Shown here: in pieces, positions 19,262 through 48,959 of the stretch | Layout: each line of letters opens with the position of its first letter | How positions within the stretch are numbered: position 1 is the stretch's first letter | Source: Minisyncoccota bacterium | Lineage (GTDB): Bacteria > Patescibacteriota > Minisyncoccia > Moranbacterales > UBA1568 | Assembly: GCA_051306005.1 (NCBI GenBank) | Contig: JBPPMJ010000003.1 | Coordinates: 97,764 to 161,763, forward strand | DNA length: 64,000 bases | Direction: 5' to 3' | Notes under the pieces: generated by a model | The model's database searches: none | What the model saw: only the letters and a program-made list of their open reading frames with translations | Told to the model about the DNA's origin: nothing | Made by a program: the position numbers and the translations under genes

Positions 19262-19362
19262 CAGCTAGCTTGAAGTATCGAGAGACCCGAGAACCCTCTG
19301 TTTAAGCCAAAGAATAAATGGCAAAAAATAGAGAGTACACGGGACTCGAACTCAAGCACAAT

Positions 19363-19387
19363 AAAACCGCCTTTTGGGCGGTTTTAT
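19363..19387. terminator. Bidirectional hairpin terminator
   Basis: AAAACCGCCTTTTGGGCGGTTTT: a GC stem flanked by A and T runs. Lies between tRNA-Ser (+) and the minus-strand gene ending at 19404. Confidence 0.5.
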
Positions 19388-19403
19388 TGTGTCTTTAAAT
19401 TTT

Positions 19404-20048
19404 CTATAGATCGCTTATTTTTTCTCCCATCGGAGTACTAAGCGTCCATTTCATTTGTTTGGAATCAAAGTCGAGCATCTTGTTTATGAGCCCGATCTCA
19501 TGAGATTTCCACTCCTCAGGATAAGGATATGCATACTTCCCTTCCTGAATAAGCTTGCGACAATATTCCATATTAAGACATTCGTCGATAGTTTTTACTT
19601 TACCATCAGTGTCTTTTACCTTTCCGTAATTTATATCCCAATCTTTGTATTGTTGGAATTTAGCATCATCATTAAAGATGTGATAATTCCCGTTAGGATC
19701 TTTTTTATGAATTTGTTTAGCGAGTTTGATAAGATCTTCTTGCGAAGTCTCTGCTGGTATCATGATGTTTTTCCATTCCTGACCAGACTTATCATAAGTC
19801 TCTAAGTTCTTATAAGCGATGACTGCTTCACTCTCCTGTGGCACAGGAACGCTTTGTTCTTGAGCAATCGGAGCTGGTTCTTTAGTGACATCATCTTTTT
19901 TCTTCTCATCGGAGCTTCCGCCCACAATAAGGATAAAAAAGAATATTATTAAGCCAATTGCCCATCGTTTTTTGATGCGCTTCTTATACCAAGCTTTCTT
20001 TTCTGGAAGTTTTTGAGCCTCTCCAGAGGGCTGAGAATTACTCTCCAT
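19404..20048 (-). CDS. Hypothetical membrane-anchored extracytoplasmic protein
   Basis: Start at MESNSQP. A basic stretch, then one TM helix (WAIGLIIFFFILIVGG), then a hydrophilic domain. No recognisable motifs. Confidence 0.4.
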   Translation of the reverse strand: MESNSQPSGEAQKLPEKKAWYKKRIKKRWAIGLIIFFFILIVGGSSDEKKKDDVTKEPAPIAQEQSVPVPQESEAVIAYKNLETYDKSGQEWKNIMIPAETSQEDLIKLAKQIHKKDPNGNYHIFNDDAKFQQYKDWDINYGKVKDTDGKVKTIDECLNMEYCRKLIQEGKYAYPYPEEWKSHEIGLINKMLDFDSKQMKWTLSTPMGEKISDL

Positions 20049-20291: not shown

Positions 20292-21668
20292 TTATTTTAG
20301 GGTGGTTTCATACTCTTTTAGACTTAATGTTTTATTCTTTTTAATCACTAGGCGACTTTTTAGACTGCCTAGAAGTTCTCTCTTTTCAGCCATTTTTCCT
20401 TCTTTGAGAATGTATTTTGCATAGGCACGGATATCAAAAGGGGATTCCTCAGAAGTCTCTACTTTGCCGCTTAGCCGAAGCACTGATTTTTGAAAATGGT
20501 TATAGCGGTTAACCTCATCTTCAAATTGCCTTTTGAGACCAATTTCATTTATATCTATCTTATCGATCAGCTTTGTCATTTCCTCGATTAACAATTCTTC
20601 TCTCAGGTAGCCAAGTTTGCAACTATGATCTCGAGAGCGAGTACATCCGTAGTAAATATAAGTAGCGGTATTTCCATTCTTAAGTTTCTTGTACTTTTCA
20701 TCTGCGGTCACACCTGATCCGCAGAGACCACAAGTTATGAGCCGAGTGAAAGCAAACTCTTTTCCTTCTCTAATAATTCTTGCTCGTTTTAGTTGTTCTT
20801 GTACCAGATCAAAAAGTTCTTTAGAAATAAGGGGCTCATGTTTTCCTTGATACCAGTTACCGCTATTTCTAGGATATTCAAAGACTCCATAGTAAAAACT
20901 CGTTTGGAGTAAACGGTAGAGGTTACTTAGCGACATATGTTTATTACTCTTAGCTTTGAAGTTGAGATCAAACTTGAGCCAGTGGTATACTTTTCGTCCT
21001 GACCAATTTTCGTAAGCTACTTTTTCAAATATTTGTTTTACAATTGCAGATCGCATAGGGTCTATTTCTACGTGACTTTTACGGTCTGGCGTAATAGCGT
21101 TCAGATAACCAGTGGGAGCCATGGTTGGCCACAGTCCCATTTCACACCTCATTCGAAGTCCTCGTTTCACATTGATGCCTCGATTATCATTTTCTAGTTT
21201 TGCTTGCGATCCTAAGATCATCAGGAGGAATTTCTCGTTAGGGGAGTTGCTAAAGCTCTGGCCGTAGGTACGAATTTCATGCAGGAGCTGTTGATCCATG
21301 AGGTCTACTAGAGAACCTAAGTCACCAGCGTTTCTACTAAGTCTGTCTGGCGCCCATGTCAGAATAGCGTTGAAGCGACCTAAGCGAATATCATTTATAA
21401 GTTCGTTGTAAACTGGTCGTCCGCCTGAATTTTTAGCCGAGTGGCTTTCTCTCCGAATTTCTACAATCTCCAATCCATCCCTCTCGGCTATTTGAAGCAT
21501 CTCCTTAATCTGAGAGTCGATAGAAAGGACTTGCCGTTCCTCGGATTCCGTCGATTTTCGAGCGTAGAGGCAGTACTTCATCTGTAGGGGAGCTTCTATA
21601 TTCTTTGCCTCTGAAGCTGCCCGTAATTGCGTTATATGGTCGTTCATATCCCAATGAATGACAGACAT
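20292..21668 (-). CDS. Large serine recombinase (resolvase domain + recombinase domain + zinc ribbon)
   Basis: N-terminal resolvase catalytic region YARKSTESEERQVLSIDSQ (aligns with YxRVST...S-x2-Q; the catalytic Ser is in KST). A recombinase domain and a C-terminal Cys cluster (CGLCGS...C) follow. 458 aa. Confidence 0.85.
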   Translation of the reverse strand: MSVIHWDMNDHITQLRAASEAKNIEAPLQMKYCLYARKSTESEERQVLSIDSQIKEMLQIAERDGLEIVEIRRESHSAKNSGGRPVYNELINDIRLGRFNAILTWAPDRLSRNAGDLGSLVDLMDQQLLHEIRTYGQSFSNSPNEKFLLMILGSQAKLENDNRGINVKRGLRMRCEMGLWPTMAPTGYLNAITPDRKSHVEIDPMRSAIVKQIFEKVAYENWSGRKVYHWLKFDLNFKAKSNKHMSLSNLYRLLQTSFYYGVFEYPRNSGNWYQGKHEPLISKELFDLVQEQLKRARIIREGKEFAFTRLITCGLCGSGVTADEKYKKLKNGNTATYIYYGCTRSRDHSCKLGYLREELLIEEMTKLIDKIDINEIGLKRQFEDEVNRYNHFQKSVLRLSGKVETSEESPFDIRAYAKYILKEGKMAEKRELLGSLKSRLVIKKNKTLSLKEYETTLK

Positions 21669-21700: not shown

Positions 21701-23158
21701 CTAAAATCCCTCTGGTTTCTCAGCAAAACCTCGGGAGCCTCTCTTATTGAGTTGTATGGCTTTCCCAGCCAATATGGAAAAAGCGTCTGCAAGATCATCG
21801 TGCTTTTCCTTTCCAAACCCCACGAGATTTTCTAGAAGATCCTCACAACCACTTTCTGGAAATTGAATTTTACCAGAAGTTACTAAATTACTTACAGACA
21901 TTAAACGGGCTCGTTTATCAGAAAATACTTGTACAGTTTCTGTACGATAGTAGTCTCTGTTTAATTGTTCCGCCGCAACACGTTGATAGCCAACGTCTTC
22001 AATGAGGATAATAACTTTTCCGTAGTGTTGAGTGGAATCGTGAAGCATTTTTATTGCAGAGAGTGTGTCTTCAAAATTTAATCTTTTCTCTATTGGATTC
22101 GGAAGTATGTATATTCTAAAGTCTTCTCCATACCCAGTAACTAATCCTACTACAAGAGCAGTAAAGTCAGCTGTTGATTTTTGGGAAATAGCTAAGTCAG
22201 TTCCAATGAGGACTCTTTTCCAGTGTTTGTCTGGTAGATTTTTATAATATTTAATTTGGTCATAGCTGAAGATTTGGTCGTCGTCAGGAATGATACGGAG
22301 GAGATATTCTCTTTGCCAAGCAATTTCGTTTCCAACTTTTTTTCTTTCTTTCTCAATCTCTGATTCATCGAGGTACTTCCCCTTCCAAAGAATCTCATCA
22401 TTTTCATTTAGTAGTGGATATTTCTTAAAAACTCCTTCACCAGATCCTTCTTCAATATCACTCTTTAAATGCATAAGGAGGGAATCTTCGTGAAGAAGAT
22501 TTCCGACTATCACCAGCTTGGTATTTTTATCACCAAGAGGAATAATTTCTCCTTTAAGCCAGTTGTATGTTTTTTGCCTCCCTTCTTTAGTTTTAGCTGA
22601 AGCCATATCTTCCACATCGTCACCGATAATCAGATCGGGACGGTGTTGTCCGTGACGCATCCCACGAATACTTTGTTCTGAAGAAGCAGCTGTAATACGG
22701 GCATTCATATTGGAAAAAACGAGTGAAGTTGATCCCCATTCGTCACTTTCTTCTTGAAATGGACCGAGGTCATTTTTAAGTAAGGTATTATTCTCGAGCT
22801 CTCTTTTTAAGTTAGTCATATGTTGCTTTGCCTGAGTTCTTGTTTGGCAAAGGATAACAACAAACTTCTTTTGCTGTTTACCAAGGATTGCCCAGATAGG
22901 ATAGGAAGTGGTAATGATAGTGGATTTACCAGATCCACGGAAAGCTACGATATAGAGGTTTTTGATAGTCTCGTCTTCCGTAAGGTTGAAAATTTCCCTT
23001 TGAAACTGAGCAGTTTCATACTTTACATAGTGAGCAAAGTAAAGGTGAAAAAACATAAAATGACTTTGCTGAGTAATAGCAATACGTACAGTTCTATCGG
23101 CAATCATTCTATCTATTACCTCATCAGGTATTTGTTTACTTATTTTTGACATCTCCAT
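21701..23158 (-). CDS. Phage terminase large subunit
   Basis: Walker A AFRGSGKST, ATPase coupling motifs, and a C-terminal RNase-H-like nuclease region (IGTDLAISQKSTADFTALVV...). Tightly followed (33 nt) by the recombinase gene. Confidence 0.75.
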   Translation of the reverse strand: MEMSKISKQIPDEVIDRMIADRTVRIAITQQSHFMFFHLYFAHYVKYETAQFQREIFNLTEDETIKNLYIVAFRGSGKSTIITTSYPIWAILGKQQKKFVVILCQTRTQAKQHMTNLKRELENNTLLKNDLGPFQEESDEWGSTSLVFSNMNARITAASSEQSIRGMRHGQHRPDLIIGDDVEDMASAKTKEGRQKTYNWLKGEIIPLGDKNTKLVIVGNLLHEDSLLMHLKSDIEEGSGEGVFKKYPLLNENDEILWKGKYLDESEIEKERKKVGNEIAWQREYLLRIIPDDDQIFSYDQIKYYKNLPDKHWKRVLIGTDLAISQKSTADFTALVVGLVTGYGEDFRIYILPNPIEKRLNFEDTLSAIKMLHDSTQHYGKVIILIEDVGYQRVAAEQLNRDYYRTETVQVFSDKRARLMSVSNLVTSGKIQFPESGCEDLLENLVGFGKEKHDDLADAFSILAGKAIQLNKRGSRGFAEKPEGF

Positions 23159-23534
23159 TATCGTTAATGGCCGCTAAACGTAAAGCTTCTCTCACCACTT
23201 CTTCTTGCTCGGGAGTGAGGTTTTCTTGTTTCTCTATTTTAGCTGTCACCTTTACTCGTTCCTTAAACTTCTCATGACGGTGATTGAGCCAGAATCTAAT
23301 AGCAGGAAAATTCTTTTCTCTGATGAGAGTGATAAGTTGGGATTCACCCATATCGTTAACCAGAGCCTCTCCTTCAGAGAGGGCTTCTTCAAGACTCTTC
23401 TTAAACTTCTTATCCTTATCTCGCCAGCGATATATGGTAGCTCGCGAAACACCTGATTTTTCACAAGCCACTTGGATAATGGGAACTCGTTTTAAGTTCT
23501 CAAGAAAGAGTTTTTTAGTGGCATGAGTTTTCAT
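23136..23534 (-). CDS. Terminase small subunit-like HTH DNA-binding protein
   Basis: N-terminal HTH (ACEKSGVSRATIYRWRDKD) and the position immediately upstream of, and overlapping, the terminase large subunit gene. Confidence 0.5.
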   Translation of the reverse strand: MKTHATKKLFLENLKRVPIIQVACEKSGVSRATIYRWRDKDKKFKKSLEEALSEGEALVNDMGESQLITLIREKNFPAIRFWLNHRHEKFKERVKVTAKIEKQENLTPEQEEVVREALRLAAINDNGDVKNK

Positions 23535-25626: not shown

Positions 25627-26541
25627 CTATCTTTTCTTCACACGGTCCCGTATAGCTGAAAGTGATAAGTGTTCAAATTCGGGTCTATCTTTTATGTCTT
25701 TGAAGATTTTCATATCTAGCCTACCAAGCTTTTTGCTTTCATTATAAATTTTAAGTATTTTTTTAGTCTCATTAGCTTTTCTAGGGCTTTTTCTAACTCT
25801 CCCGACTGAATATGGATACTTCTTTTTGAAAATATTAAGAGGATCTTTTTCGATAAAATCAATCAATTCTTTTTTTGTAGTATCAATATCAAAGCTTATT
25901 GATTTTTTTGGTTTTTTACCGACAGGAACTCCATATTCATATTGGAAAGAGATTCCGGGATCTGCAGGAATAATTGTGTTAAAGAGTAAGAGTTCAACTA
26001 TGGCATCATAATATCTCCAAGGTAAATTCCATTTTTTCAATAGATAATGAGCCGCACCAAAAACGCTTTCGTTAACTATTTGTGAGGCGTACTTTAATTT
26101 AGCGGGAGTACTTTTTAGATTGGTGCCATCAGCCCAGCTAAAAAACCATCTTCTGTATTCAGGACTTATTGTCTGAGGAAAAATATTGGTATAGATCTTG
26201 TTTATCTCAGTTCTATTAGGAATCATGAAAGCACTATTTGTAGGACTTATTTTAAGAGCTGAACGAACTTCTTTTAGAAGTTTTTGATTATTAAATGAAT
26301 CGAGTAATTCAAGATGAATCATATCTTTATGCTCTCGATTAGCTTTTTTGTAAGAAGCAGTAGTATTGCGAATAACTATTGGAGGAATAAAAAACAGACG
26401 TCTCTCTAAATCTTTTAAATCATTCAGAGAGTAGTCTAACTTTAAGAAATGAGTCTCTTTTAGAGTCTTCCTTGAAATAGGAATGTATTGCTTCAATAGT
26501 GGAGATTTATTACATTCTCCAATAAATCTCTTGATATCCAT
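25627..26541 (-). CDS. Hypothetical protein (very AT-rich, Lys-rich)
   Basis: 304 aa ORF with no recognisable motif. Sits between the MTase/terminase operon and the Type III R-M operon. Confidence 0.4.
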   Translation of the reverse strand: MDIKRFIGECNKSPLLKQYIPISRKTLKETHFLKLDYSLNDLKDLERRLFFIPPIVIRNTTASYKKANREHKDMIHLELLDSFNNQKLLKEVRSALKISPTNSAFMIPNRTEINKIYTNIFPQTISPEYRRWFFSWADGTNLKSTPAKLKYASQIVNESVFGAAHYLLKKWNLPWRYYDAIVELLLFNTIIPADPGISFQYEYGVPVGKKPKKSISFDIDTTKKELIDFIEKDPLNIFKKKYPYSVGRVRKSPRKANETKKILKIYNESKKLGRLDMKIFKDIKDRPEFEHLSLSAIRDRVKKR

Positions 26542-26601
26542 AGAAAATCTTTACTTTACGGAAGTCTTACTTTGTTGTAAACTAATGGTAACTCAAATTT
26601 T

Positions 26602-26802
26602 ATGAAGAATCAACCAAAGAAAACTGAAGATTACCCAGATATTCTAACTCTTCAAGAAGCATGTGAGCTTCTAAACTGCCATCCAAATACTCTTCGTAAC
26701 TGGGATAACAAGGGTATTTTAAAGGCTATACGATTTGGGACAAGAAAAGACAGAAGGTATAAGAAAGAAGACGTTCTTAATGTTATCAATGAAAGTCATT
26801 AA
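26602..26802 (+). CDS. Excisionase/MerR-like HTH DNA-binding protein (putative R-M controller)
   Basis: 66 aa; LTLQEACELLNCHPNTLRNWDNKGIL is a classic MerR/excisionase-type HTH. Lies 3 nt upstream of mod. Confidence 0.6.
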   Translation: MKNQPKKTEDYPDILTLQEACELLNCHPNTLRNWDNKGILKAIRFGTRKDRRYKKEDVLNVINESH

Positions 26803-26805
26803 AGT

Positions 26806-28350
26806 ATGCCGACATTAAACTGGATTGGAAAAGAAGCGGTAGTAAATCATGATAAAGAGGTTCCTTTTAGACTGTTAAAAAAAGTGAAATCTGCTTCTGC
26901 GGGGAATAATTCTCAGAATCTTATTGTGCATGGAGACAATCTCGAAGCCCTAAAAGCACTTATGCCGTATTATGGTGGGAAAGTGAAGTGTGTCTATATT
27001 GATCCCCCGTATAATACTGGCAATGAAAGTTGGGTTTATAACGATAAAGTAAACTCACCTAAGATTAAAAAGTGGCTAGGAAAAGTAGTAGGAAAAGAGT
27101 TGGAGGATCTTTGTCGCCACGACAAGTGGCTTTGTATGATGTATCCAAGAATGAGTCTACTACGCGATCTGATGTCGGAAGATGGAGCTTTTTTTGTTTC
27201 TATTGACGATGATGAAGGGCAGTATTTGAAAGCAATGCTTGATGAAATATTTGGTAGAGAGAACTTTCTTACTACTATTATTTGGCATAAAAAACATACC
27301 TCGGCTAATGATGCGAGATTCTTCTCTGATAATCATGACTACATTCTTGTTTACACAAAAAATATTAATAAATTCAATATCAATTTATTACCTAGAGAAG
27401 CAATACATGATTCTCGTTATACTAATATAGATAATGATTCTCGCGGTCCTTGGGCTTCGGGTCCTTGTCATGTTAAAACTCCAAGTGCTAAAGACATTTA
27501 TGAGATAACTACACCAAGTGGTAGAAAAGTCTGGCCGCCTAAAAGTACTAGTTGGCGATTTTCTGAAAAGAAATTTGCTGAACTAGTGAAAGATAATCGT
27601 ATTTGGTTTGGTGAGAAGGGAGGTAACATTCCACGCTATAAAAGATTCTTAACAGATGTGCAGCAAGGCATTATTCCTAAGACAATGTGGCTAAGAGATG
27701 AAGTGGGAGATAATCAGGAAGCTAAATCAGAAGTAAAAGATTTAGTTCCGAATAGCCCATTTAATACTCCAAAGCCTACTCGTTTAATTAAGCGTATTTT
27801 ACAACTTTCGACCGATAAGGATTCTATTGTTTTTGATTCTTTCGCTGGCTCTGGGACTACTGGACAGGCAGTCCTGGATCTTAATAAAGAAGACGGAGGA
27901 AATAGAAAATTTGTCCTTGTTGAAATGGAAGATTCTGTAGCGAAAGATATTACAGCTGAAAGAATTAAACGAGCAATTAAAAAGTTCGATTATCAAGACG
28001 GATTTGAGTATTGTGAGTTAAGTGAACCTCTCTTTGATGAGAATGGGCAAATTGAAGAATCCTGTGATTTTAATCAATTTGCAACCTATCTTTATTTTAC
28101 CGAAACACAGACTAATATCGATAAAAATGAGATAAACGGAAATTTCATCGGAAAACACAATGAAAGAGAATATCACCTAATATACAAAGAGAAAGGGGAA
28201 AATGTATTGAGCAAACCCTTTCTAAAGAAACTGCCAAAGAATAATACAATTAAGGTTGTGTATGCAGATAGATGCACTTTAGATGAGGAAGTATTAGATA
28301 AATACAATATTATTTTTAAGCAGATCCCTTACGAAGTTAAAGTTTATTAA
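26806..28350 (+). CDS. mod: Type III restriction-modification methyltransferase (Mod), N6-adenine
   Basis: Motif IV DPPY (VYIDPPYNTGNE) near the N-terminus, motif I FDSFAGSGTTG near the C-terminus, and a central variable target-recognition region. Confidence 0.85.
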   Translation: MPTLNWIGKEAVVNHDKEVPFRLLKKVKSASAGNNSQNLIVHGDNLEALKALMPYYGGKVKCVYIDPPYNTGNESWVYNDKVNSPKIKKWLGKVVGKELEDLCRHDKWLCMMYPRMSLLRDLMSEDGAFFVSIDDDEGQYLKAMLDEIFGRENFLTTIIWHKKHTSANDARFFSDNHDYILVYTKNINKFNINLLPREAIHDSRYTNIDNDSRGPWASGPCHVKTPSAKDIYEITTPSGRKVWPPKSTSWRFSEKKFAELVKDNRIWFGEKGGNIPRYKRFLTDVQQGIIPKTMWLRDEVGDNQEAKSEVKDLVPNSPFNTPKPTRLIKRILQLSTDKDSIVFDSFAGSGTTGQAVLDLNKEDGGNRKFVLVEMEDSVAKDITAERIKRAIKKFDYQDGFEYCELSEPLFDENGQIEESCDFNQFATYLYFTETQTNIDKNEINGNFIGKHNEREYHLIYKEKGENVLSKPFLKKLPKNNTIKVVYADRCTLDEEVLDKYNIIFKQIPYEVKVY

Positions 28351-28354
28351 ATCT

Positions 28355-35299: not shown

Positions 35300-35324
35300 G
35301 AATAAGTCGAATTAACAGAGGCTG

Positions 35325-36269: not shown

Positions 36270-36319
36270 AGAAAGAAAAGCAATGTATCTAATTTCTTTA
36301 TGGCTAGTATAACATGCTT

Positions 36320-36348
36320 TTGACAATACCCTAAGGGGGGTATATAAT
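36320..36348 (+). promoter_or_regulatory. Sigma70-type promoter with an embedded CsoR operator
   Basis: TTGACA-17 nt-TATAAT. The 17 nt spacer ATACCCTAAGGGGGGTA(T) is a GC palindrome closely resembling the Bacillus subtilis CsoR operator ATACCCTACGGGGGTAT. It lies 25 nt upstream of the csoR ATG. Confidence 0.6.
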
Positions 36349-36372
36349 AAAAGTACTTTATACAAACAATCT

Positions 36373-36636: not shown

Positions 36637-36654
36637 ATTTTTTAATATAATGTT

Positions 36655-37113: not shown

Positions 37114-37121
37114 GAGTTAGT

Positions 37122-39425: not shown

Positions 39426-39427
39426 GT

Positions 39428-40435: not shown

Positions 40436-40439
40436 ACAT

Positions 40440-40865: not shown

Positions 40866-40882
40866 GATTATCTAGAGAATAT

Positions 40883-41422
40883 ATGAAGTACATCCTCTCT
40901 CTTTCATTTGTCATCATTTTTCTCGGAGCCTCTGTACTTACAGGGTATCTTTTGTGGCAGAATTATAAGGCTTCTCCTGAGCCAGTAGTGGTACAGGAAG
41001 CAGTTAAGGAGCCTCCTCAAGAAATGGCTCAAGAAGAAGAAAAACCAGAGGTTGTTCAAGATATATCCTCCGAGAAGAAAGTGCCCGAAAAGCAGTCTTC
41101 AGGAATGGAGAGTTTTCCAGCGCCGAGTACCGAAGTTAAAAATGGTCGTACAGAACGAACTATTCATATGGGAGTACGCCAGTGGGTTTGGGAGCCAAAT
41201 GTCATTCGAGCTAAACAAGGAGAGCTGGTGAGGCTTATTATTCATAATGCCGATGTAAATCATCCTCTTTATATACCAGAGCTAGGCATAGAAGCAGAAG
41301 TACCTCCAGAGGGGGCAGTAGTTGAGTTTGAAGCTAAGAAGAAGGGAAGTTTTTTCTTTCTATGTGGAACCTACTGTGGAGAAGGACATGCTGAAATGCA
41401 GGGCACACTCATCATTGATTAG
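40883..41422 (+). CDS. Cupredoxin-fold protein with a CuA-type binuclear copper motif
   Basis: C-terminal FFLCGTYCGEGHAEMQG matches Cx3CGxGHxxM, the cytochrome oxidase subunit II / N2O reductase CuA ligand pattern. N-terminal TM anchor. Confidence 0.6.
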   Translation: MKYILSLSFVIIFLGASVLTGYLLWQNYKASPEPVVVQEAVKEPPQEMAQEEEKPEVVQDISSEKKVPEKQSSGMESFPAPSTEVKNGRTERTIHMGVRQWVWEPNVIRAKQGELVRLIIHNADVNHPLYIPELGIEAEVPPEGAVVEFEAKKKGSFFFLCGTYCGEGHAEMQGTLIID

Positions 41423-41472
41423 GAGTAATCAATGGAAGAAAGGACTTTAAAGCTTTATGGTATTATAAAGAC

Positions 41473-41889
41473 ATGAAATTGTGGAGCAAAAGAAACGCTA
41501 TTTTACTCGTAGCCACCCTTATTCTTTTTTCGGGATTTGGTATTTTTTCTCATACATCAACACCTAACGACTCAGAGTGCCTTTTTGCTGTTGCTGAATC
41601 CACCAATTGTAATACAGGCGAAAGTCAGCCACTGCATATCATAAAGCACTGTCTTAATTTTTTTGTTGGTGTGATGCAGACAAGCGAGGGGTTAGAGAAA
41701 TCTCTTCTGGTCTTTGTAGTATTGGCATATATATTTTTTAAGCCAGGAACACTGAAAGATCTATACTCTCCTGTAATGATGCGCATGAAGCACTATGCTT
41801 CTCAGCAAATAATTTTAGAACATCATCTTGTTAATAATCTTCGAAATCTTTCTTCTTGGTTAGCCTTTGCCTATAGCTACTCTCGTTAG
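41473..41889 (+). CDS. Hypothetical membrane protein
   Basis: ORF with an N-terminal TM helix; no recognisable motif. Confidence 0.3.
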   Translation: MKLWSKRNAILLVATLILFSGFGIFSHTSTPNDSECLFAVAESTNCNTGESQPLHIIKHCLNFFVGVMQTSEGLEKSLLVFVVLAYIFFKPGTLKDLYSPVMMRMKHYASQQIILEHHLVNNLRNLSSWLAFAYSYSR

Positions 41890-41979
41890 GAACCACTAGG
41901 ATGTTGTTTTGATAAACAATGTCATTTTATCGTGGAGCGTATATAAAACGGAGGGGTAAGTAGCTATGAGAAAAAGTAT

Positions 41980-42525
41980 ATGATGGTTTTTAGAGTGCTA
42001 GAGAGGGTCTTTCGAAAATGGGAATACATCGCAATAGCCACTGCTGTAAGTAGTGTAGCTTTTGCATTGGTGACATGGCTTCCTAATTTGAGATTGGTTC
42101 TCGAAAGCCTCTTCTCTGAAGGAACAATTGCAGAAAGGACGAAATTACCGATTATTTTTCTGGGTTCTATTGTGACCAATTTCACTCTTTTCTCAGCCAT
42201 CTATACGCTGTGCATCATAGTACTGCTTGGCATTAGCATTAGCCTTATGATCTTTTCATTTCGTCAGAGAGTTCCACAGTCAAAATCAAGTGGTGTTACC
42301 ACAAGTTTCTTTGGAACACTGAGTGGACTATTTGGTATCGGCTGCGCTGCTTGTGGTTCAGTAATCTTGACGCCACTTCTAGCAGCCTTAGGGGGAACGG
42401 CTTTTCTTGCCTTTCTTCCTCTAGAAGGTAGCGAGTTCGGAATAATAGGAGTAGCGCTTCTCTTGATCTCAATTTACGTAACGGCCAAAGAGATTGATCA
42501 GCCAGCTCCCTGCAAGATTGGGTAA
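41980..42525 (+). CDS. Hypothetical polytopic membrane protein (Cys pair GIGCAACGS)
   Basis: About 4 TM helices; no recognisable family. Confidence 0.35.
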   Translation: MMVFRVLERVFRKWEYIAIATAVSSVAFALVTWLPNLRLVLESLFSEGTIAERTKLPIIFLGSIVTNFTLFSAIYTLCIIVLLGISISLMIFSFRQRVPQSKSSGVTTSFFGTLSGLFGIGCAACGSVILTPLLAALGGTAFLAFLPLEGSEFGIIGVALLLISIYVTAKEIDQPAPCKIG

Positions 42526-42553
42526 AAAGTTTTATTCATTAACTGTTATACGT

Positions 42554-43324
42554 ATGGAAGAATTAGAAAAAACGAAGAAAGAAATGTACGATGAAGAGAA
42601 AAAAATGAAAGAAAAAGAAAACACACAGGAGGTAGGTAAGAAGCCATGGTATGGATCTAAGATATTTATAGGTGTTCTGTTTGTGGCGGGAATCTTTGCT
42701 GCATGGCAAATTCTTAGTTCTAAAGAAACAGAAGCACCTAAGAAGCCCTCTGGAGAGAAGGCTGTAGTGGCTCCAAACCCAATCCTAGCTGTTCAAGAGA
42801 ATGACTGGGTACGTGGTGACAAGGAGGCTCCAGTGACCATTGTTGAGTACCTGGATTTTGAATGTGAAGCTTGCGGAGCCTACTATCCAATAATAAAACA
42901 ATTGGAAAAAGAGTTTGAAGGTAAGCTTAAGGTAGTAACCCGATACTTCCCACTTCCAGGGCATAAGAACAGCATGGAGGCGGCACTAGCGGTAGAAGCT
43001 GCTGGGAGACAGGGGAAATTTTTCGAAATGCATGATCTCCTGTTTGAATCCCAGAAAGAATGGTCAGAAAAGCCACTCTCCAACCCTGATCTCTTTCTTC
43101 CGTATGCAGAGAAGCTTGGTCTTGATATGAACAAATTTAATCAGGATCGAAAAGAAGCTGCTGTTATAGCGAGAGTTGATAAGAATAAGAAGGAAGCAGA
43201 TCAACTGAAGCTGAACGGTACACCATCATTCTTCCTAAATGGTAGAGCTATTAAGAGTCCAAACACATTGGAAGATTTTCAATCTCTCATTCAGAAAGAA
43301 ATTGATGCGCTGCCTGTTAAGTAA
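42554..43324 (+). CDS. DsbA-like thioredoxin-fold thiol:disulfide oxidoreductase
   Basis: TM anchor then VTIVEYLDFECEACGAYYP (CxxC active site in the DsbA context). Start at MEELEK; the track start 42494 overlaps the previous gene. Confidence 0.75.
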   Translation: MEELEKTKKEMYDEEKKMKEKENTQEVGKKPWYGSKIFIGVLFVAGIFAAWQILSSKETEAPKKPSGEKAVVAPNPILAVQENDWVRGDKEAPVTIVEYLDFECEACGAYYPIIKQLEKEFEGKLKVVTRYFPLPGHKNSMEAALAVEAAGRQGKFFEMHDLLFESQKEWSEKPLSNPDLFLPYAEKLGLDMNKFNQDRKEAAVIARVDKNKKEADQLKLNGTPSFFLNGRAIKSPNTLEDFQSLIQKEIDALPVK

Positions 43325-43330
43325 AATAGT

Positions 43331-43924
43331 ATGACTCTTGAACTCTATTCCACACTTCTCACACTTGGTTCCATAGGAATATTCATTATTCTTTTAGGAG
43401 TTGGTATTGGCTATATTTTTTCTGTGAAAATTCGTCAGTGTATGCAGAGGATATCGTACGAGCAATATCTCATAGCCCTGGCTACTATTTCGATTGTCTC
43501 CATAGCGGGCTCCCTCATTTATCAGCTTGTATATATGACTCCTGTTTGTGAGCTTTGTTGGTGGCAGCGGATATTCTTGTACCCCGTGAGCGTGATAGCA
43601 ATAGTGGCCTTATGGTTTCGGACTCGTGAGAGTCACATCACTATTGCGATTCTCTCCGCTTTTGGATTATGGTATGCAAGTTATCACTACTATTTTCATT
43701 TTCAAGGCTACGTACTTGGAAATAAGCTCAGTATTCCATGTTCATACGGTGGACTGATGCCAGCTTGTACAAATTCACCAGTTTTAGTTTTTGGGTTCGC
43801 TACCATTCCTTTCATGGGTATCATGATATTTGGAAGTATGATTATACTTGCTGCTCTCGCTCATACGAAACTCGAAACGAGTTTGTGGGAAAAATTAATG
43901 AAAACTTTTAAATCTAATAGTTAA
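43331..43924 (+). CDS. Disulfide bond formation protein B (DsbB/BdbC family)
   Basis: Four TM helices with CELCWWQR and a second Cys pair (C..C), typical of BdbC/DsbB. Confidence 0.75.
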   Translation: MTLELYSTLLTLGSIGIFIILLGVGIGYIFSVKIRQCMQRISYEQYLIALATISIVSIAGSLIYQLVYMTPVCELCWWQRIFLYPVSVIAIVALWFRTRESHITIAILSAFGLWYASYHYYFHFQGYVLGNKLSIPCSYGGLMPACTNSPVLVFGFATIPFMGIMIFGSMIILAALAHTKLETSLWEKLMKTFKSNS

Positions 43925-43928
43925 AAAT

Positions 43929-44621
43929 ATGGAAAATAAGACAACTACAGTGGAAACGAAAACAGATGAAGTTGAGACAACTGAAAAAATAGATGCGCAG
44001 GGAAAGAAGTATAAGAAAGAAGAAATAGTGCGACAGGCAAGAACGCTGCTTGCCAGCAAGAAGACCCTAGCATTGCTCATTATTCTTTTTTTGGCAGGAA
44101 CAATTTTCTACTTTAAGAATTATTTTGTAGTTGCGATGGTGGATGGAGAGCCTATTAGTCGTTTGAGTGTCATTGAACGACTGGAAAAGAGGAGTGGAAA
44201 AACTGTGCTTGATTCTATCATTACAGAAAAACTCATAGACAATGAGACAAAGCGGCAAGGAATTTCTGTCAGTGAAGACGACATAGACGCTGAAATCAAG
44301 ACTATTGAAGCGAGCGTCACAGCTCAAGGTGCTACCTTAGAAGATGCTCTAGATCAGCAGGGTATGACGATGGAAGACTTTAGAAAAAGCATTACGCTTC
44401 AAAAAAAGCTAGAGAAACTCCTTGGTGACAAAATTAAAGTGAGTGACGAAGAGATTACCAAATCATTAGGTGACCAAGCAGGAATACCAGCAGGTAAGGA
44501 GGAGGAGATTCGTCAGCAGGTTACTCAACAGTTAGAGAGTGAAAAGCTTAATCAAGAAGCAGGAAAGTATATAGAAGAACTTAGAACGAACGCTAAGATC
44601 CAGCTTTTTATGAACTACTAA
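43929..44621 (+). CDS. SurA N-terminal domain-like chaperone (membrane anchored)
   Basis: TM anchor then VAMVDGEPISRLSVIERLEKRSGKTVLDSIITEKLI..., the SurA_N-like pattern. Paralog of the gene at 60310-61074. Confidence 0.5.
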   Translation: MENKTTTVETKTDEVETTEKIDAQGKKYKKEEIVRQARTLLASKKTLALLIILFLAGTIFYFKNYFVVAMVDGEPISRLSVIERLEKRSGKTVLDSIITEKLIDNETKRQGISVSEDDIDAEIKTIEASVTAQGATLEDALDQQGMTMEDFRKSITLQKKLEKLLGDKIKVSDEEITKSLGDQAGIPAGKEEEIRQQVTQQLESEKLNQEAGKYIEELRTNAKIQLFMNY

Positions 44622-44642
44622 AAATAAATAATTAAAAATGTT

Positions 44643-45398
44643 ATGAGTATAATGCAAAAAAATCCATTTAGTCCCAACGCCATCATTATTTCAATCGCTA
44701 TTTTAGTGGGAGCGTTGTTTGTTTCCAGTGCGATTGTAGGGAGGGGAACTGTAGTTAACAGCGGAGATAGTAAGCTGGGAGCAGTGAAAGAAAATACTGT
44801 TCCTCCTACTGCACCGACTCCTCAAGAAGGGAAGGTTTCTATTGCTAACGACCCAGTACTAGGAAAGAAAGATGCACCTGTTACTATTGTGGAGTTTTCT
44901 GATTTTGAATGCCCATTCTGCAAGCGGGCATTTACAGAAGTATTACCACAATTGAAGAAAGAGTATATAGAGACAGGCAAAGTGAAACTTGTATATAAAG
45001 ATTTCCCACTTGATTTTCATGCAAACGCTCAAAAAGAAGCAGAAGCAGCTCAATGCGCCTTTGATCAGGGAGGAGATGCTATTTATTACCAGTATCACGA
45101 TAGTATCTTCACGCAGACTAAAGGGAATGGTACAGGGTTAGAATTAACTGAATTACCACTCATAGCTCAGAAGCTCGGACTGGATCAGGCTAAATTTCAG
45201 AAATGTCTTGATTCTGGCAAGAATGAGCAAGAAGTCAAAGATGATATGGCCGAAGGAGAAAAGGTTGGTGTTTCAGGGACTCCTTCATGGGTTATTGGAA
45301 AGTCTAATGGCGATAGTATTGAAGGTAAGTTGATTGTTGGGGCTCAGCCTTATGCCGCTCTGAAAGCAGTGATCGATAGTGCTCTGGAAGAGAAATAA
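44643..45398 (+). CDS. DsbA-like thioredoxin-fold oxidoreductase
   Basis: VTIVEFSDFECPFCKRAF with a CPFC active site. Signal anchor. Confidence 0.8.
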   Translation: MSIMQKNPFSPNAIIISIAILVGALFVSSAIVGRGTVVNSGDSKLGAVKENTVPPTAPTPQEGKVSIANDPVLGKKDAPVTIVEFSDFECPFCKRAFTEVLPQLKKEYIETGKVKLVYKDFPLDFHANAQKEAEAAQCAFDQGGDAIYYQYHDSIFTQTKGNGTGLELTELPLIAQKLGLDQAKFQKCLDSGKNEQEVKDDMAEGEKVGVSGTPSWVIGKSNGDSIEGKLIVGAQPYAALKAVIDSALEEK

Positions 45399-45423
45399 GA
45401 AAAGAAAGATTAAAAACATATAT

Positions 45424-47361
45424 ATGTCACAGGCCTGTTGCTCAACTGAAGAAAAAAAAGAAGGGACTCCCTCTCTTGAAAAGAAGGGATTATTTGAGTT
45501 GAAAAAAGTTCTGACTATTCTTTCTGGTTTGAGTACAGGTCTGGCATTTGTCTTAAGTTTTCTTTCTACCCCAGATTTACTGATCACTTTGCTCTATGTA
45601 TTTAGTATCTTGGCGGGAGGTATCTATGTCGTTAAGGGAGCACTCCGAGGTTTGATGAAGCAGCGGTTTCTTAATATAGACTTTCTCGTGGTCATCGCAT
45701 CCCTAGGGGCAATCTATATCAATCAACTGCCAGAAGCAGCCGCTGTCATCTTCTTTTTCTCCCTTTCTGAGGCGTTAGAGGAATTTGGCATAGCGAGGTC
45801 TCGTAAGGCTCTGCAAGCCCTTCTTCATTCTGCGCCTAAAACGACTACTCTTCTTGATGGCAGAGTGGTAGCGGTTACGGAAGTGTCTGTAGGGAATAAG
45901 ATCGCCGTCAGACCAGGAGAGCTCATTGCTCTTGATGGCAGGGTGACCAAGGGTAATTCTGCAGTGAATGAGGCGACTATCACGGGTGAACCTTTACCCA
46001 GAAATAAACAAGTTGGTGATGGAGTTTTTGCAGGGACACTCAATGAAAATGGTTACTTAGAAATTGAAGTAACCAAAGAGAGTAAAGATTCTACTTTTTC
46101 AAAGATTGTGCATTTAGTGGAACAGGCTCAGAAAGCAAAAGCTCCAAGTCAGGAATTCATCGATCGTTTTGCGAAGTTCTATACGCCGACAGTCGTTATA
46201 GTTGCTCTTTTAATAGCTATCTTCCCTCCTCTTTTATTGGGCGAATCATTTCTCATTTGGTTTACCAGAGCATTGGTATTACTAGTCATTGCTTGTCCTT
46301 GTGCCTTAGTTATTTCTACGCCCGTGGCGATTACTTCTGCCATTGGAGGCGCTTCTCGAAGGGGAGTCCTCATTAAAGGAGGTAAATACCTGGAGGAAAT
46401 GAAGAAAGTGAAAGTCATTGCCTTTGATAAAACGGGTACTCTCACTATGGGAGAGCCTTATATCTCTGATGTCATTCCCTTTAATGGATTTACTGAAAAA
46501 GAAATTATTGAGGATGCTGCTGGGATAGAGCAATTTTCTTCGCACCCTCTTTCAAAAAGCATTCTGGAATATGCGAAAGAAAAGGGAATACTTTCTCATT
46601 CAATGACGAATTATGAGAATGTCGCAGGCAAAGGAGGGAAAGCTGTATGCACGATTTGTAGCAATCAACAGCATTGCGTGGGGAATCTTAAGCTCATGGA
46701 TACTCATGGGGTTTCTACGCAAGAAATTACCGCACAAACAGAAAAATTAGAGAGAGAAGGAAAAACTATTGTACTCGTAAGTGTAAGCAACAGATTAATG
46801 GGAGTGATAGCTATATCTGACAAGGTAAGAGAGGAGTCTAAAGAAACCATTTTGAGGTTAAGTAATTTAGGAGTGAAATCTGTCATGCTGACAGGTGATA
46901 ATCAACACACTGCTTCTTATGTAGCTAAAGATCTCGGCATTACAGAAGCTTACGGTTCGCTTCTCCCAGAAGACAAAGTAGCAAAAATAGAAACTCTAAA
47001 AAAAGAGTATACCTCCGTAGCTATGATTGGCGATGGAGTAAATGATGCACCCTCGCTTGCATTGGCAAATGTTGGTATAGCGATGGCTTCCAAGGGATCA
47101 GATGTGGCAATTGAGACGGCTGACATTGCTCTTATGAACGAAAACTTGCTGAATGTCGCTGACATAGTAAGTTTGAGCAAAAGAACGGTGCGAACAATTA
47201 AACAGAATATAACGGGGGCAATCTTAGCCAAGGTAATTTTCATGGTTTTAGCGGTATTTGGGATTTCAAACCTCAGTATAGCTATTGCGGCTGATACGGG
47301 CATGGCTCTTTTAGTGATCTTGAATAGTTTAAGACTTTTTCGGTTTCAGAATTATGTATAA
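45424..47361 (+). CDS. Heavy-metal P1B-2-type ATPase (Zn2+/Cd2+/Pb2+-type), no classical HMA domain
   Basis: CPC in TM6, [16 protein letters not shown] conserved Lys in TM7 (AKVIF) and DTG in TM8 give the Zn/Cd-type signature. The N-terminus has a CC pair (MSQACCSTEE). Start at that Met. Confidence 0.85.
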   Translation: MSQACCSTEEKKEGTPSLEKKGLFELKKVLTILSGLSTGLAFVLSFLSTPDLLITLLYVFSILAGGIYVVKGALRGLMKQRFLNIDFLVVIASLGAIYINQLPEAAAVIFFFSLSEALEEFGIARSRKALQALLHSAPKTTTLLDGRVVAVTEVSVGNKIAVRPGELIALDGRVTKGNSAVNEATITGEPLPRNKQVGDGVFAGTLNENGYLEIEVTKESKDSTFSKIVHLVEQAQKAKAPSQEFIDRFAKFYTPTVVIVALLIAIFPPLLLGESFLIWFTRALVLLVIACPCALVISTPVAITSAIGGASRRGVLIKGGKYLEEMKKVKVIAFDKTGTLTMGEPYISDVIPFNGFTEKEIIEDAAGIEQFSSHPLSKSILEYAKEKGILSHSMTNYENVAGKGGKAVCTICSNQQHCVGNLKLMDTHGVSTQEITAQTEKLEREGKTIVLVSVSNRLMGVIAISDKVREESKETILRLSNLGVKSVMLTGDNQHTASYVAKDLGITEAYGSLLPEDKVAKIETLKKEYTSVAMIGDGVNDAPSLALANVGIAMASKGSDVAIETADIALMNENLLNVADIVSLSKRTVRTIKQNITGAILAKVIFMVLAVFGISNLSIAIAADTGMALLVILNSLRLFRFQNYV

Positions 47362-47556
47362 AAATGATACAGACAAAATGAAGAGAGAAGATGATCTGGG
47401 AAGCCAGGATCAGGCAGAATATTCAGAGTTTCTGAGAGAGTGGAAGTATTCAGCTATCTGCATTGCGATTGGATTAGTAGTAATTATTGTGATTGGACTA
47501 CTCTTTCACGGAAGTTAGTAGCAGTTGAGCCACTATGTAAGTTAAAAAAAGTGAAC

Positions 47557-48798
47557 ATGAAAAACAAAAAAATTCAAAAACCGATCTCTTTTAAACCGCT
47601 ATACCTGGGCATAGCTATCATGCTTTCGGCATCAAGTTTTGTATATGCAGAAAGCATAACAAACCTTAGTGCTAAAAATGAGGAAAAAGAGCTGGAAAAA
47701 ATTAATAAACAAATTGACGCATATCAAAAAATCCTGGAGTTAAAAGAAAAACAAGGAGACAATTTGGAAGGTCAAATTACCGGATTGCAGGCACAAACTG
47801 AATCATTGAGTTCGCAGATTAATCTGAACCAGGAGGAGCTTAATAGTTTGACTCAGGATATTGATCAATTACAATCTCGAATAAATGAAAAAAGCGTCCT
47901 CATAAACCAGCAGAAAAAAATCTTGTCTGAATTGCTCCGTACATATTATCAGGACTTTTCTCATAGTATTACTCCTGCCCTTTTAACTCAGGAAGAGACT
48001 ATTAACTACTTAAATAATGCGAATTGGAATACAGATGTTAGTCAAAAGGTCAGTGAGCTTCTAGATTCTGTTCAGGGTTTGCGTGATAGCTTAGCTTCAG
48101 AGCAGAAGACTTTGGACGAAAAGAAGCAATCAGTGGATGATTTGCAGGAACAACTCAATGCAAGGAATGAATACTTGCAATCGTCTCAAGCAAGTAAGGA
48201 GCGTTTGCTTGGTCAAGTGAGTGCTGAGCAGGAAAAATACGAAGATCAAATTGATGATCTTGAAAAACAAAAAGAAGACTTGGAGCAAGAAATTTCAGAT
48301 ATTGAATCTGGGAAGATTAACCAGCTTGTTGGTTTGCCAAAAGGGAATGGGCAGTTATCATACCCGTTAAAAGATTTTCGCCTTACTCAAGGCTATGGAA
48401 AGACGGGATTTTCAGGAAACTATACATCTGGGATGCATAATGGCTTCGACTTAGCAGCTCCAAAAGGTACTACTGTTATGGCTGCTGCTGATGGAAAAGT
48501 AGTCGGAACTGGTGATTTGGGTGCTTTTGCTTATGGCAAATGGGTAACCATCAATCATGACAATGGATTAGTTACCCTGTATGCTCATATGTCTAAAATT
48601 AGTGTCAGTCCTGGAAAGACGGTAAAGAAAGGAGACAAGATAGGCGAGGTGGGGAGTACGGGATTTTCAACAGGTAGTCATGTACATTTCACCGTCTATG
48701 CATCCAAATCGTATGAAATCGTAAACTTTACCTCCGCAAAGGGAAAGAAGGGTCCAGTAGGAGCAAGCGTGAACCCTGGAAAATTCTTAAAGAAATAA
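47557..48798 (+). CDS. M23 family peptidase with an N-terminal coiled coil (EnvC-like)
   Basis: Signal peptide, ~250 aa coiled coil, C-terminal M23 motifs (HNGFDLAA...GSTGFSTGSHVHFTV). Confidence 0.8.
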   Translation: MKNKKIQKPISFKPLYLGIAIMLSASSFVYAESITNLSAKNEEKELEKINKQIDAYQKILELKEKQGDNLEGQITGLQAQTESLSSQINLNQEELNSLTQDIDQLQSRINEKSVLINQQKKILSELLRTYYQDFSHSITPALLTQEETINYLNNANWNTDVSQKVSELLDSVQGLRDSLASEQKTLDEKKQSVDDLQEQLNARNEYLQSSQASKERLLGQVSAEQEKYEDQIDDLEKQKEDLEQEISDIESGKINQLVGLPKGNGQLSYPLKDFRLTQGYGKTGFSGNYTSGMHNGFDLAAPKGTTVMAAADGKVVGTGDLGAFAYGKWVTINHDNGLVTLYAHMSKISVSPGKTVKKGDKIGEVGSTGFSTGSHVHFTVYASKSYEIVNFTSAKGKKGPVGASVNPGKFLKK

Positions 48799-48959
48799 AA
48801 TTAGGTATTACTAAACTACTGGTCTAGAAAAGAGACATGACTGTGTCTTATAAGACATACCCTGTATCGCGTCTCATTTGTCTCAAAAGCCTGACCCGAG
48901 AACCCTAATTTACTATACTGCCAGTACCTCTAAGAAACCCCTCAACAGCCCCATACTTA

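Follow-up and report, generated by a model that had tools for sequence, protein, structure and literature searches.

A ~29.7-kb island at a tRNA-Ser(TGA) gene of a Minisyncoccota bacterium as a likely integrative element of a Patescibacteria-wide serine recombinase family

We describe a 64,000-nt stretch of DNA from a Minisyncoccota bacterium (contig JBPPMJ010000003.1, positions 97,764 to 161,763; called the window here, and the basis of our numbering) and, within it, a genomic island that begins at a tRNA-Ser(TGA) gene and carries a large serine recombinase (LSR), terminase genes, a restriction-modification (R-M) system and a copper/disulfide gene cluster. Comparison with related sequences makes it likely, in our judgment, that positions 19263-48984 form one integrative element of ~29.7 kb, which belongs to a Patescibacteria-wide family and was joined by its LSR to the extreme 3' end of the tRNA. 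We show the anatomy and boundaries of the element, its membership in the family and the distribution of that family, and the linkage of its cargo. An earlier, sequence-only reading of the same DNA had proposed an island of ~29.6 kb bounded by a 14-bp direct repeat. Its estimate of the size stands, but its ends do not: the real ends are the 3' end of the tRNA and the end of a conserved block.

The two ends of the island

The left end of the island is the last base of tRNA-Ser(TGA), between 19262 and 19263. More than 100 metagenomic tRNA-Ser loci are homologous to the window up to 19262-19264 and no further; there begins a left arm that recurs among related elements, with a 12-nt spacer past the tRNA 3' end and then the pattern (G/T)TATCGAG(A/G)GACC... 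Sixteen different occupied tRNA sites (Ser-TGA, Ser-GCT, Ser-CGA, Asp and Gln) are followed by this arm at a constant 12-nt spacing, and so are, at equal spacing, at least seven ends of the conserved block described below; from their sequence, these joins of block end and left arm look like attP or tandem junctions. Of the 80 metagenomic loci examined with the same tRNA 3' end, all but some five lack the arm, and it is also missing behind the orthologous tRNA-Ser of two relatives (L008 and L009; loci used for comparison carry L numbers), and behind each of the window's other eight tRNAs. One of these, the tRNA-Asp at 57820-57896, is the last of a Met-Met-Asp cluster and is unoccupied; in L032 the same cluster (tRNA-Asp 16956-17029) is occupied by a 16.6-kb element of this family.

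By its homologues, the protein encoded to the left of the tRNA assigns the organism to Candidatus Moranbacteria. The tRNA-Ser(TGA) of the window is syntenic with that of L008 and L009. The closest relatives with long contigs, L008-L012, share ~65-75% amino acid identity with the window; the collections that we searched hold none closer and, from the same organism, only short Logan contigs. The backbone of these relatives runs from a 571-aa protein, RecG, a 173-aa protein and tRNA-Ser(TGA) through 2-6 kb of variable genes to an ABC transporter and RRM_1. In the window, 38.7 kb lie between tRNA-Ser and the ABC transporter, and L008-L012 have none of this DNA at that site. A tRNA with an integrase beside it, absence from the orthologous site of relatives, distant as these are, and deviant composition mark the interval as a tRNA-linked island. 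The view that a single horizontally acquired island starts at tRNA-Ser is thereby upheld, both by its foreign tetranucleotide signature and by the relatives, which lack its genes at the orthologous tRNA-Ser. Alignment to relatives, suggested earlier as a check, confirmed this absence and yielded no conspecific empty site.

The right end of the island is the 3' end of a conserved block of ~190 nt. The window's copy (nhmmer E = 2e-43) aligns over 48814-48999 with four other sequences, namely the DNA directly 3' of a homologue of the island's 366-aa protein in L032, the DNA after the TerL gene of L030, the same position in L031, and a second copy in the window itself. The block pattern (GTCTCATTTGTCTC ... 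GACC ... TCTAGACC) matched 73 stretches in species-representative genomes and none in IMG/VR; most of the 73 records carry Patescibacteria lineage labels, and several of the other labels are probably mis-assigned bins. Across 44 aligned blocks the order is GAGACA/TGTCTC repeats, GTCTCATTTGTCTC, a core GACC(C)GA..CCTCAA, and GTTCTAGACC plus 12 nt to ..GCCCGC, right after which conservation drops abruptly, a point on which alignments A1 and A2 agree. The block's 5' half has evolved together with its 3' half (Mantel r = 0.62, 0 of 999 permutations), and in both halves the nearest relative of the window block is L041. We also considered the block as a structured RNA and ruled this out: it has no Rfam match, and RNAalifold gives -1.9 kcal/mol with 0 compensatory pairs. 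The block therefore behaves as a DNA site.

The neighbours of the blocks are of three kinds: homologues of the 366-aa protein, genes for LSR, methyltransferases and terminases, and copper genes. The last lie beside blocks, in the same orientation, strikingly often (L045, L075, L077, L078, L080, L086, L088 and L093).

The second full block of the window lies at 61472-61670 (-), accompanied by a degenerate copy of the 3' half at 61128-61221 (-). Its sequence has the look of another island's right end, and this island would extend from ~61.49 kb beyond the end of the window, from an HtrA-like protease onward. In L008 the corresponding place holds a tRNA-Ser(GCT), beside a SurA-like gene.

The crossover site and the 14-mer repeat

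Five results place the crossover, as far as sequence comparison can place it, at the last bases of the tRNA rather than in the 14-mer. The most direct evidence comes from the DNA behind the blocks, which in six cases matches, in register from CCGC, the DNA behind an intact tRNA-Ser elsewhere, and which therefore points to a crossover at the tRNA 3' end. Such trailer matches include L041 with L209 (94% over 52 nt), L084 with L163 (100% over 27 nt), L090 with L170 (82% over 61 nt) and the second block of the window, from 61487 downward, with the tRNA-Ser trailer of L163 (84% over 98 nt). The elements of L030 and L031 are 98% identical up to the exact 3' end of the block, and their flanks diverge after it. 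A further result is the left arm that stands, at its 12-nt spacing, behind at least seven block ends; in L040 a perfect 35-nt repeat stands behind both the tRNA and block 1. The final 4 nt of a block are the final 4 nt of the target tRNA (CAGC, CAAC or CCGC), and the identity common to the two junctions of the window amounts to only ~4 nt (CCGC), in keeping with the earlier caveat that large serine recombinases normally leave no long repeat. The geometry is symmetric: the T-loop GTTCGAATCC of the tRNA, or GTTCTAGACC in the block, ends 12 nt before the junction, and GTATCGAG starts 12 nt after it. Serine integrases use short att sites of about 40-50 bp, with two half-sites and a central 2-bp crossover, and leave no long direct repeat; the putative site of ~44 bp with two half-sites would, by its sequence geometry, be of this kind.

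These observations suggest a mechanism in which the LSR would join the attP of the element to the extreme 3' end of tRNA-Ser(TGA). The left half-site of attP would be the end of the block, where GTTCTAGACC and the following 12 nt would mimic the T-loop and 12-nt acceptor strand of the tRNA, and the right half-site would be the 12-nt spacer followed by GTATCGAG. The two halves would form the ~44-bp site with the crossover at its centre; we infer its exact nucleotides, CCGC being the only shared identity. After integration, the tRNA would be followed by the left arm, and the block would abut the DNA that once trailed the tRNA. The predicted empty attB reads ...GGTTCGAATCCTTCCGCCTCCGC up to the junction and CAAATCGTACTTTCAATTTCG beyond it; the predicted attP of a circle or tandem reads ...GGTCTAGACCCGACTAGCCCGC up to the junction and AGCTAGCTTGAAGTATCGAGAGACC beyond it. 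The HTH_17, 214-aa or TerS-like proteins of the element may assist the LSR, and TerL and TerS may package the excised element into the capsids of helper phages, which would amount to a satellite lifestyle.

What, then, is the 14-mer that drew attention to this interval? Both exact copies of GACCCGAGAACCCT, at 19284-19297 and 48893-48906, are confirmed on the + strand, and the left copy does lie near the 3' end of tRNA-Ser, although it starts 22 nt past the tRNA end and not 23 as first given. A third site, at 15946-15959 (-), differs by 2 mismatches, and the window holds no further one; this makes three matches at up to 2 mismatches, against 0.17 expected. The window also contains 25 exact direct repeats of at least 14 nt, against ~9 in block-shuffled sequence. 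An exact 14-mer repeat is on its own therefore weak evidence. The match is meaningful because both copies sit in end sequences that are conserved among related mobile elements. Each end has one copy of the motif GACC(C)GAGA..C.TC, at the left within the arm and at the right as the core of the block, and GACCCGA is present in the pseudo-tRNA end of the block as well, at 48969, where the sequence-only reading had noted AGACCCGACTAGCCC. It had suggested that the repeat might belong to a mosaic repeat family; the 14-mer is no part of the GC-rich mosaic host repeat, and both sequences belong to the element's own end motifs. Among the 112 loci fetched at the time of this check, only contigs from this one organism carry the exact 14-mer.

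Within an element, the two copies of the motif vary in concert. Among seven elements, the left-arm copy is closer to the block core of its own element than to those of others, with a co-variation score reached by 3 of 5040 permutations (3 of 720 without the window), and the core of the window block is unlike the core of L041, its nearest relative among the blocks, and identical to the window's own left arm. The 14-mer is thus a motif with one copy at either end, at +22 relative to the left junction and ~-78 relative to the right one, and not a crossover scar. The junctions lie 21 nt to the left of the left copy and ~78 nt to the right of the right copy, which is internal to the block, so that the repeat does not bound the island as a duplicated attachment (att) site. 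An older tyrosine-integrase event, also raised earlier, finds no support in the gene content, since no tyrosine integrase was found in the island (Pfam, PHROGs, NCBIfam). Probably a protein encoded by the element binds the 14-mer pair, or exchange between the ends keeps the two copies matched.

The alternative that the 14-mer is the common core of attP and attB would make 19298-48906 the element and leave the 3' half of the block (48907-48984) as target DNA. It predicts a circle that reads ...AAAAGCCTGACCCGAGAACCCT joined to CTGTTTAAGCC, and an empty site that reads ...GTATCGAGAGACCCGAGAACCCT joined to AATTTACTATAC. Some LSR systems do share cores of 12-16 bp (phiRv1, the direct repeats of SCCmec), and the 14 identical nucleotides at both ends, as well as the co-variation of the motif within elements, would fit such a core. 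In other elements, however, the two motif copies agree at just 8-13 of 16 positions. Some block copies begin near the core and lack the 5' half (L040 b2, L083, L104 and the degenerate copy in the window), and in L040 a perfect 35-nt direct repeat (CCGCATCAAGCACATAGTATCGAGGGTGACCCGAG), which stands behind the tRNA and behind block 1 (flipped coordinates 1950-1984 and 6240-6274), ends in the middle of the motif. Against these stands the behaviour of the block as a single co-evolving unit, the identity of L030 and L031, which continues through the 3' half to the block end, and the target-derived trailers, which start past the block end and not past the core. No fetched locus shows an empty site made of left arm, core and block 3' half, and the orthologous and other tRNA-Ser sites have no such landing pad. 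We therefore consider a crossover in the 14-mer unlikely.

Several observations weigh against the placement of the junctions at the tRNA and block ends, or against the role that we propose for the block. The block is much longer than the usual att site of an LSR. A search of metagenomes for the exact 30-mer of the right flank, which would reveal a conspecific empty site, gave 0 matches, and neither an excised circle nor a conspecific empty site of the window's element is present among the data searched. The DNA from 48985 onward has no forward match to any tRNA-Ser trailer; 10 nt past the right end, 48994-49022 is the exact reverse complement of 29 nt behind tRNA-Ser in L166 and L201, for which we have no explanation, a small inversion of the former tRNA trailer being possible. 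Outside its block, at a distance of 75 nt, L030 repeats 60 nt of a tRNA-Gln (20834-20892 and 5360-5419), so that in some relatives the crossover may lie elsewhere, or the element may occupy an older scar. Finally, L040 and L103 contain small elements that run from tRNA to block without any LSR, for which action in trans has to be assumed.

Some further searches concern the same junctions. An exact scan for the tRNA-Ser in species-representative genomes gave 0 matches. A displaced tRNA-Ser fragment was sought right of the block and at 35.3 kb; nothing rose above shuffled sequence at either place, and the best local match at 48.8-49.6 kb lay at the shuffle mean. We also considered the ends of Logan contigs (at 19233, 19262 and 19300, with one contig that spans the right junction) as evidence on the junctions and judged them uninformative, because de Bruijn graphs break at tRNAs in any case and the positions of the ends agree with neither model of the junctions. 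Tandem arrays and scars occur among the relatives (L040, L030 and L112); in L112 (5595-5781, 15261-15442) a different element, with a 505-aa serine recombinase, is inserted directly at the pseudo-tRNA end of the block.

Unity and gene content of the island

Between 19.3 and 35.3 kb the GC content is 33-39%; it reaches 40.8% from there to 49.0 kb, and the flanks have 41-44%. The drop is thus sharpest where the sequence-only reading had seen it (19.4-35.3 kb), and this reading had left room for a composite island. The tetranucleotide signature is foreign throughout 19.3-48.98 kb: the island correlates with the flanks at r = 0.59-0.79, whereas the flanks correlate with each other at 0.93, and the copper segment (35.3-48.98 kb; r = 0.67-0.77) is as foreign as the LSR segment. 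From 49.0 kb the signature is again host-like, in agreement with the earlier placement of the island end just before a copy of a repeat element near that position.

Evidence for the unity of the island comes from L109, an independent element on a Logan contig with an 89%-identical 366-aa protein. Window positions 34213-45328 match it at 93.4% nucleotide identity without a break, and the shared stretch comprises the 366-aa gene, M23, CsoR, DUF305, CopA, DsbD_2, cupredoxins, DsbA/B and SurA in the same order; upstream, L109 carries TerL, TerS and ParB-methyltransferase genes with defence cargo unlike that of the window. Copper genes lie beyond the 366-aa homologue in L075 and L034 as well. The GC step at 35.3 kb is therefore a seam between cargo modules of different origin, because L109 shares the 366-aa gene and the copper cluster unbroken. 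The comparison bears out the view that the island holds both the phage-like/R-M segment and the copper/disulfide cluster; of the composite island, the mosaic cargo is retained and an internal att junction is not.

There is little probability, in our view, that two entities lie side by side here, a ~16-kb LSR/terminase/R-M element (19.3-35.3 kb) that lost its right end and an older copper island (35.3-48.98 kb) that owns the block. Such an arrangement would account for the GC step (33-37% to ~41%), and copper genes followed by a block do occur without a nearby LSR in the 8-kb loci L078, L086, L088 and L093; tandem arrays of such elements are also known (L040, L112). Yet neither a block nor a left arm nor a piece of a tRNA lies at 35.3 kb, where the two stop codons are just 25 nt apart, and a comparison of 19.26-19.42 kb with 35.25-35.40 kb yields no direct or inverted repeats beyond 8-mers. 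In L109 the 366-aa gene and the copper cluster are contiguous while the LSR-side module is otherwise divergent, and the order of 366-aa gene, copper genes and block recurs in L075. Even if two elements did meet here in the past, functional-looking ends now bound the whole 29.7 kb. On these sequence comparisons the LSR part and the copper part are one island, without an internal att junction at 35.3 kb. The two M23 peptidases, which we considered as possible duplicated island ends, were ruled out in that role, their catalytic domains being just 39% identical.

Table 1. Features of the island and its integration target (window coordinates)
Feature	Positions	Strand	Evidence and details
tRNA-Ser(TGA), integration target	19175-19262	+	ARAGORN; Rfam tRNA, 58 bits
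Left arm (unit L)	19263-19297	+	spacer AGCTAGCTTGAA 19263-19274; GTATCGAGA 19275-19283; GACCCGAGAACCCT 19284-19297
214-aa open reading frame (ORF) beside recombinase, function unassigned	19404-20048	-	called 214 aa in Logan contigs too
LOOT RNA, Rfam RF03000	20114-20241	-	49.8 bits, gathering score 46.4; model positions 1-121
LSR, 458 aa	20292-21668	-	Pfam Resolvase, Recombinase, Zn_ribbon_recom (PF00239 8e-20, PF07508 2e-13, PF13408 2e-7, each above cutoff)
TerL (21701-23158) and TerS-like HTH protein (23136-23534)	21701-23534	-	PHROGs phrog_38 1e-78; terminase small-subunit families; Pfam Terminase_6C
Two N6/N4 DNA methyltransferases, 257 aa and 424 aa	23531-25538	-	Pfam N6_N4_Mtase
304-aa ORF, function unassigned	25627-26541	-	no family match
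73-aa HTH_17 protein, excisionase/MerR-like	26581-26802	+	Pfam HTH_17 3.7e-11; PHROGs excisionase families
Type III R-M: Mod (26806-28350), Res (28355-30628)	26806-30628	+	PADLOC MTase_III 1e-194, REase_III 7.5e-87; Pfam
819-aa and 363-aa ORFs, function unassigned, variable cargo position	30659-34193	+	no family match
366-aa multi-zinc-ribbon protein, far-end hallmark gene	34199-35299	+	four conserved CxxC pairs
Copper/disulfide cargo	35325-48798	mixed	Pfam; order: M23 peptidase (-), CsoR (36373-36636), DUF305, CopA (37122-39425), HMA-DsbD_2, two cupredoxins, two unassigned ORFs, DsbA, DsbB, SurA_N, DsbA, second P-type ATPase (45379-47361), second M23 peptidase (47440-48798)
Right-end block	48814-48984	+	GAGACA/TGTCTC repeats; GTCTCATTTGTCTC 48871-48884; core 14-mer 48893-48906; pseudo-tRNA end TCTAGACCCGACTAGCCCGC 48965-48984

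The genes of the island are listed in Table 1. Its only recombinase has the domain set of a large serine recombinase; the best NCBIfam similarity is to CcrB, at 107 bits against a cutoff of 900. The 214-aa ORF beside it has a weak homologue at the same position in L034/L035 (tblastn). Homologues of the methyltransferases form part of a conserved module and in relatives carry a ParB_N domain. The 73-aa HTH_17 protein, conserved in L017, L018 and L023, is a candidate directionality or regulatory factor. The R-M system is of type III, with the Mod methyltransferase adjoining the Res helicase-nuclease, and the position of the 819-aa and 363-aa ORFs is filled by other genes in L109, L110 and L032. 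The 214-, 304-, 819-, 363- and 366-aa ORFs belong to no Pfam, PHROGs, PADLOC or NCBIfam family, and an AlphaFold model of the 366-aa protein (pLDDT 80) has no fold match in the PDB. No primase or Rep domain was detected with Pfam, PHROGs and NCBIfam, five ORFs being without an assigned function.

Virion genes (capsid, portal, tail) and lysis genes were not found, and Pfam and PHROGs give just TerL and TerS. This absence could be taken to mean that the island is a decayed, immobile prophage remnant in a hypervariable tRNA-linked region, with a 14-mer match that arose by chance, as the 25 exact repeats of the window and the lack of synteny over the entire 19.3-57.3 kb might also suggest. We regard this as highly improbable. 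The ORFs for LSR, TerL, TerS and methyltransferase are all intact, both end structures are intact and conserved, and the motif co-varies within elements. Moreover, the same gene set without structural genes occurs in dozens of contigs, which speaks for a stable design and not for decay.

The surroundings of the island show rearrangements of their own. The genes at 49000-57300 (ApbE, AhpC, SDR, a PIF1-like helicase and others) have host-like composition (r = 0.93 against the left flank) and do not lie between tRNA-Ser and the ABC transporter in relatives; the interval from tRNA-Ser to the tRNA cluster is therefore flexible beyond the island itself. A GC-rich mosaic host repeat (..CGCACGYGCGGAGCGC..GCAACCCCGAAAGAAA..), made of direct and inverted pieces, occupies 14570-14730 and 49088-49220. 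It starts ~100 nt right of the island end and is distinct from the end motifs of the island; similar GC-rich stretches stand behind tRNA genes in related contigs. To the left, 14500-18200 is a 3.7-kb segment with an isochorismatase, a PPDK_N-like protein, a 144-aa ORF and a UDG-family protein, flanked by ~90-nt inverted repeats (14806-14894 and 18067-18153, 91% identical) and by a 30-nt perfect inverted pair (14905-14934 and 16717-16746). It is missing in L008 between the aminotransferase and tRNA-Arg genes.

The element family and known mobile elements

Queries with TerL and LSR against IMG/VR returned 16 loci (L014-L029) with an ordered module of methyltransferase, sometimes a second methyltransferase, TerS-like protein, TerL and LSR, and the same module occurs in contigs of metagenome-assembled genomes. 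The 3' end of the LSR gene faces the 3' end of a tRNA in L015 (tRNA-Glu), L017 (tRNA-Asp), L027 (tRNA-Ser(TGA)) and also L032. Moran-, Nealson- and Paceibacterota contain a very large number of LSR homologues (65-96% identity), and the cargo beside the module varies (by Pfam, Shedu-like, TIR/caspase, GmrSD, Bub-like and ABC exporter genes). The 366-aa protein has 281 homologues, the named ones in Patescibacteria; it lies at the end far from the LSR in L029, L032 and L064, immediately before the block in the latter two. On one 25.6-kb contig (L029/L021, IMGVR_UViG_3300014205_009253) two methyltransferase-TerS-TerL-LSR modules lie ~16 kb apart; several family members can therefore lie close together.

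Elements of the family often have the LOOT RNA as well; in five independent ones it lies directly 3' of the LSR gene, on the same strand. Outside the window it occupies this position in L025 (11413-11549), L032 (11389-11523), L034/35 (11409-11538 in L034) and L110/111 (1645-1779 in L110), with scores of 60-70 bits, and it occurs elsewhere inside three further related elements (L016, L021 and L028). In the literature on this metagenome-derived RNA we found neither a function nor a link to a recombinase. Likewise, we found nothing specific in the literature on tRNA islands with serine recombinase and terminase genes in the candidate phyla radiation (CPR), nor a description of the family or of its block.

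In lifestyle, the closest analogue is the tycheposons of Prochlorococcus. A tyrosine recombinase serves 910 of the 937 tycheposons, which have partial tRNAs at their flanks; a minority has a large serine recombinase, and some resemble phage-inducible chromosomal islands (PICIs) and carry terS (Hackl et al., bioRxiv 10.1101/2020.12.28.424599). The element of the window shares with them integration at tRNAs, islands built by successive insertions, tandem junctions and remnants, and ecological cargo that includes metal homeostasis. It differs from most of them in its LSR and in a junction at the very 3' end of the tRNA with ~4 nt of identity, and from tycheposons in general in the 190-nt block with a pseudo-tRNA end, the presence of TerL as well as TerS, the lack of a detected replication module, and a Patescibacteria host.

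The staphylococcal cassette chromosome (SCC, SCCmec) offers a parallel in its recombinase: the LSR Ccr inserts it at the extreme 3' end of a conserved gene, where it gathers cargo and forms tandem or composite arrays with repeated att sites. The family described here resembles SCC in its cargo, its composite arrays and, by our reading of the junctions, an LSR-driven 3'-end insertion. The window's LSR is not a Ccr orthologue, judging by the low CcrB score, and its target is a tRNA, that of SCC being rlmH (orfX). SCC also lacks the terminase genes, LOOT RNA and pseudo-tRNA block of the window's element.

Similarities to phages and their satellites extend only to some features. Like PICIs and other phage satellites, the element has a site-specific integration, a size of 10-30 kb, TerS without a full virion module, and defence or accessory cargo; an LSR with TerS-like and TerL genes and no structural genes gives it a PICI-like gene set. 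Known PICIs mostly have a tyrosine integrase, together with a primase/replication module and a circuit of repressor and derepression. The element of the window showed none of the three, and TerL with TerS but without capsid genes is unusual. With the serine-integrase phages (phiC31, Bxb1, phiRv1, SPbeta) the element shares the recombinase architecture; its putative ~44-bp site would likewise have two half-sites around a central crossover and little identity between attP and attB. Those phages are complete and usually sit inside protein-coding genes; the element has no virion structural genes, which sets it apart from a prophage, and would use the 3' end of a tRNA via a tRNA-mimicking half-site. 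Finally, classical tRNA islands with tyrosine integrases (Islander/TIGER type), as presented in part of the literature on them (PMC4383910), have their crossover inside the tRNA and a displaced tRNA fragment as direct repeat. The window's island is like them in its tRNA-adjacent position, foreign composition and absence from relatives, and unlike them in that neither a tyrosine integrase nor a displaced tRNA-Ser fragment was found in the searches above, although the relative L030 has its tRNA-Gln repeat.

It is tempting to go further, and we offer as a real but tentative possibility that these elements form an undescribed family whose LSR targets the last bases of tRNAs via a tRNA-mimicking attP. 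Its ~190-nt block would then serve as attachment and possibly packaging site, the LOOT RNA would be a companion RNA of the recombinase, and the family would be a major vehicle for defence and copper genes, perhaps as terminase-bearing satellites of CPR phages.

The comparison of the two ends also carries a lesson for automated island delimitation: a striking direct repeat can mark end regions without being a recombination scar. The orphan LOOT RNA gains a genomic partner, and the predicted junctions provide a concrete candidate pair of att sites for serine integrases of a new group, which appear to recognise the 3' ends of tRNAs. The genomes of Patescibacteria are tiny, and gene exchange among these bacteria is little understood. 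In this regard, our findings fix the ends of the element to the base and describe its layout; the family to which it belongs carries restriction and other defence genes, together with a full copper-resistance cluster, across several CPR phyla.

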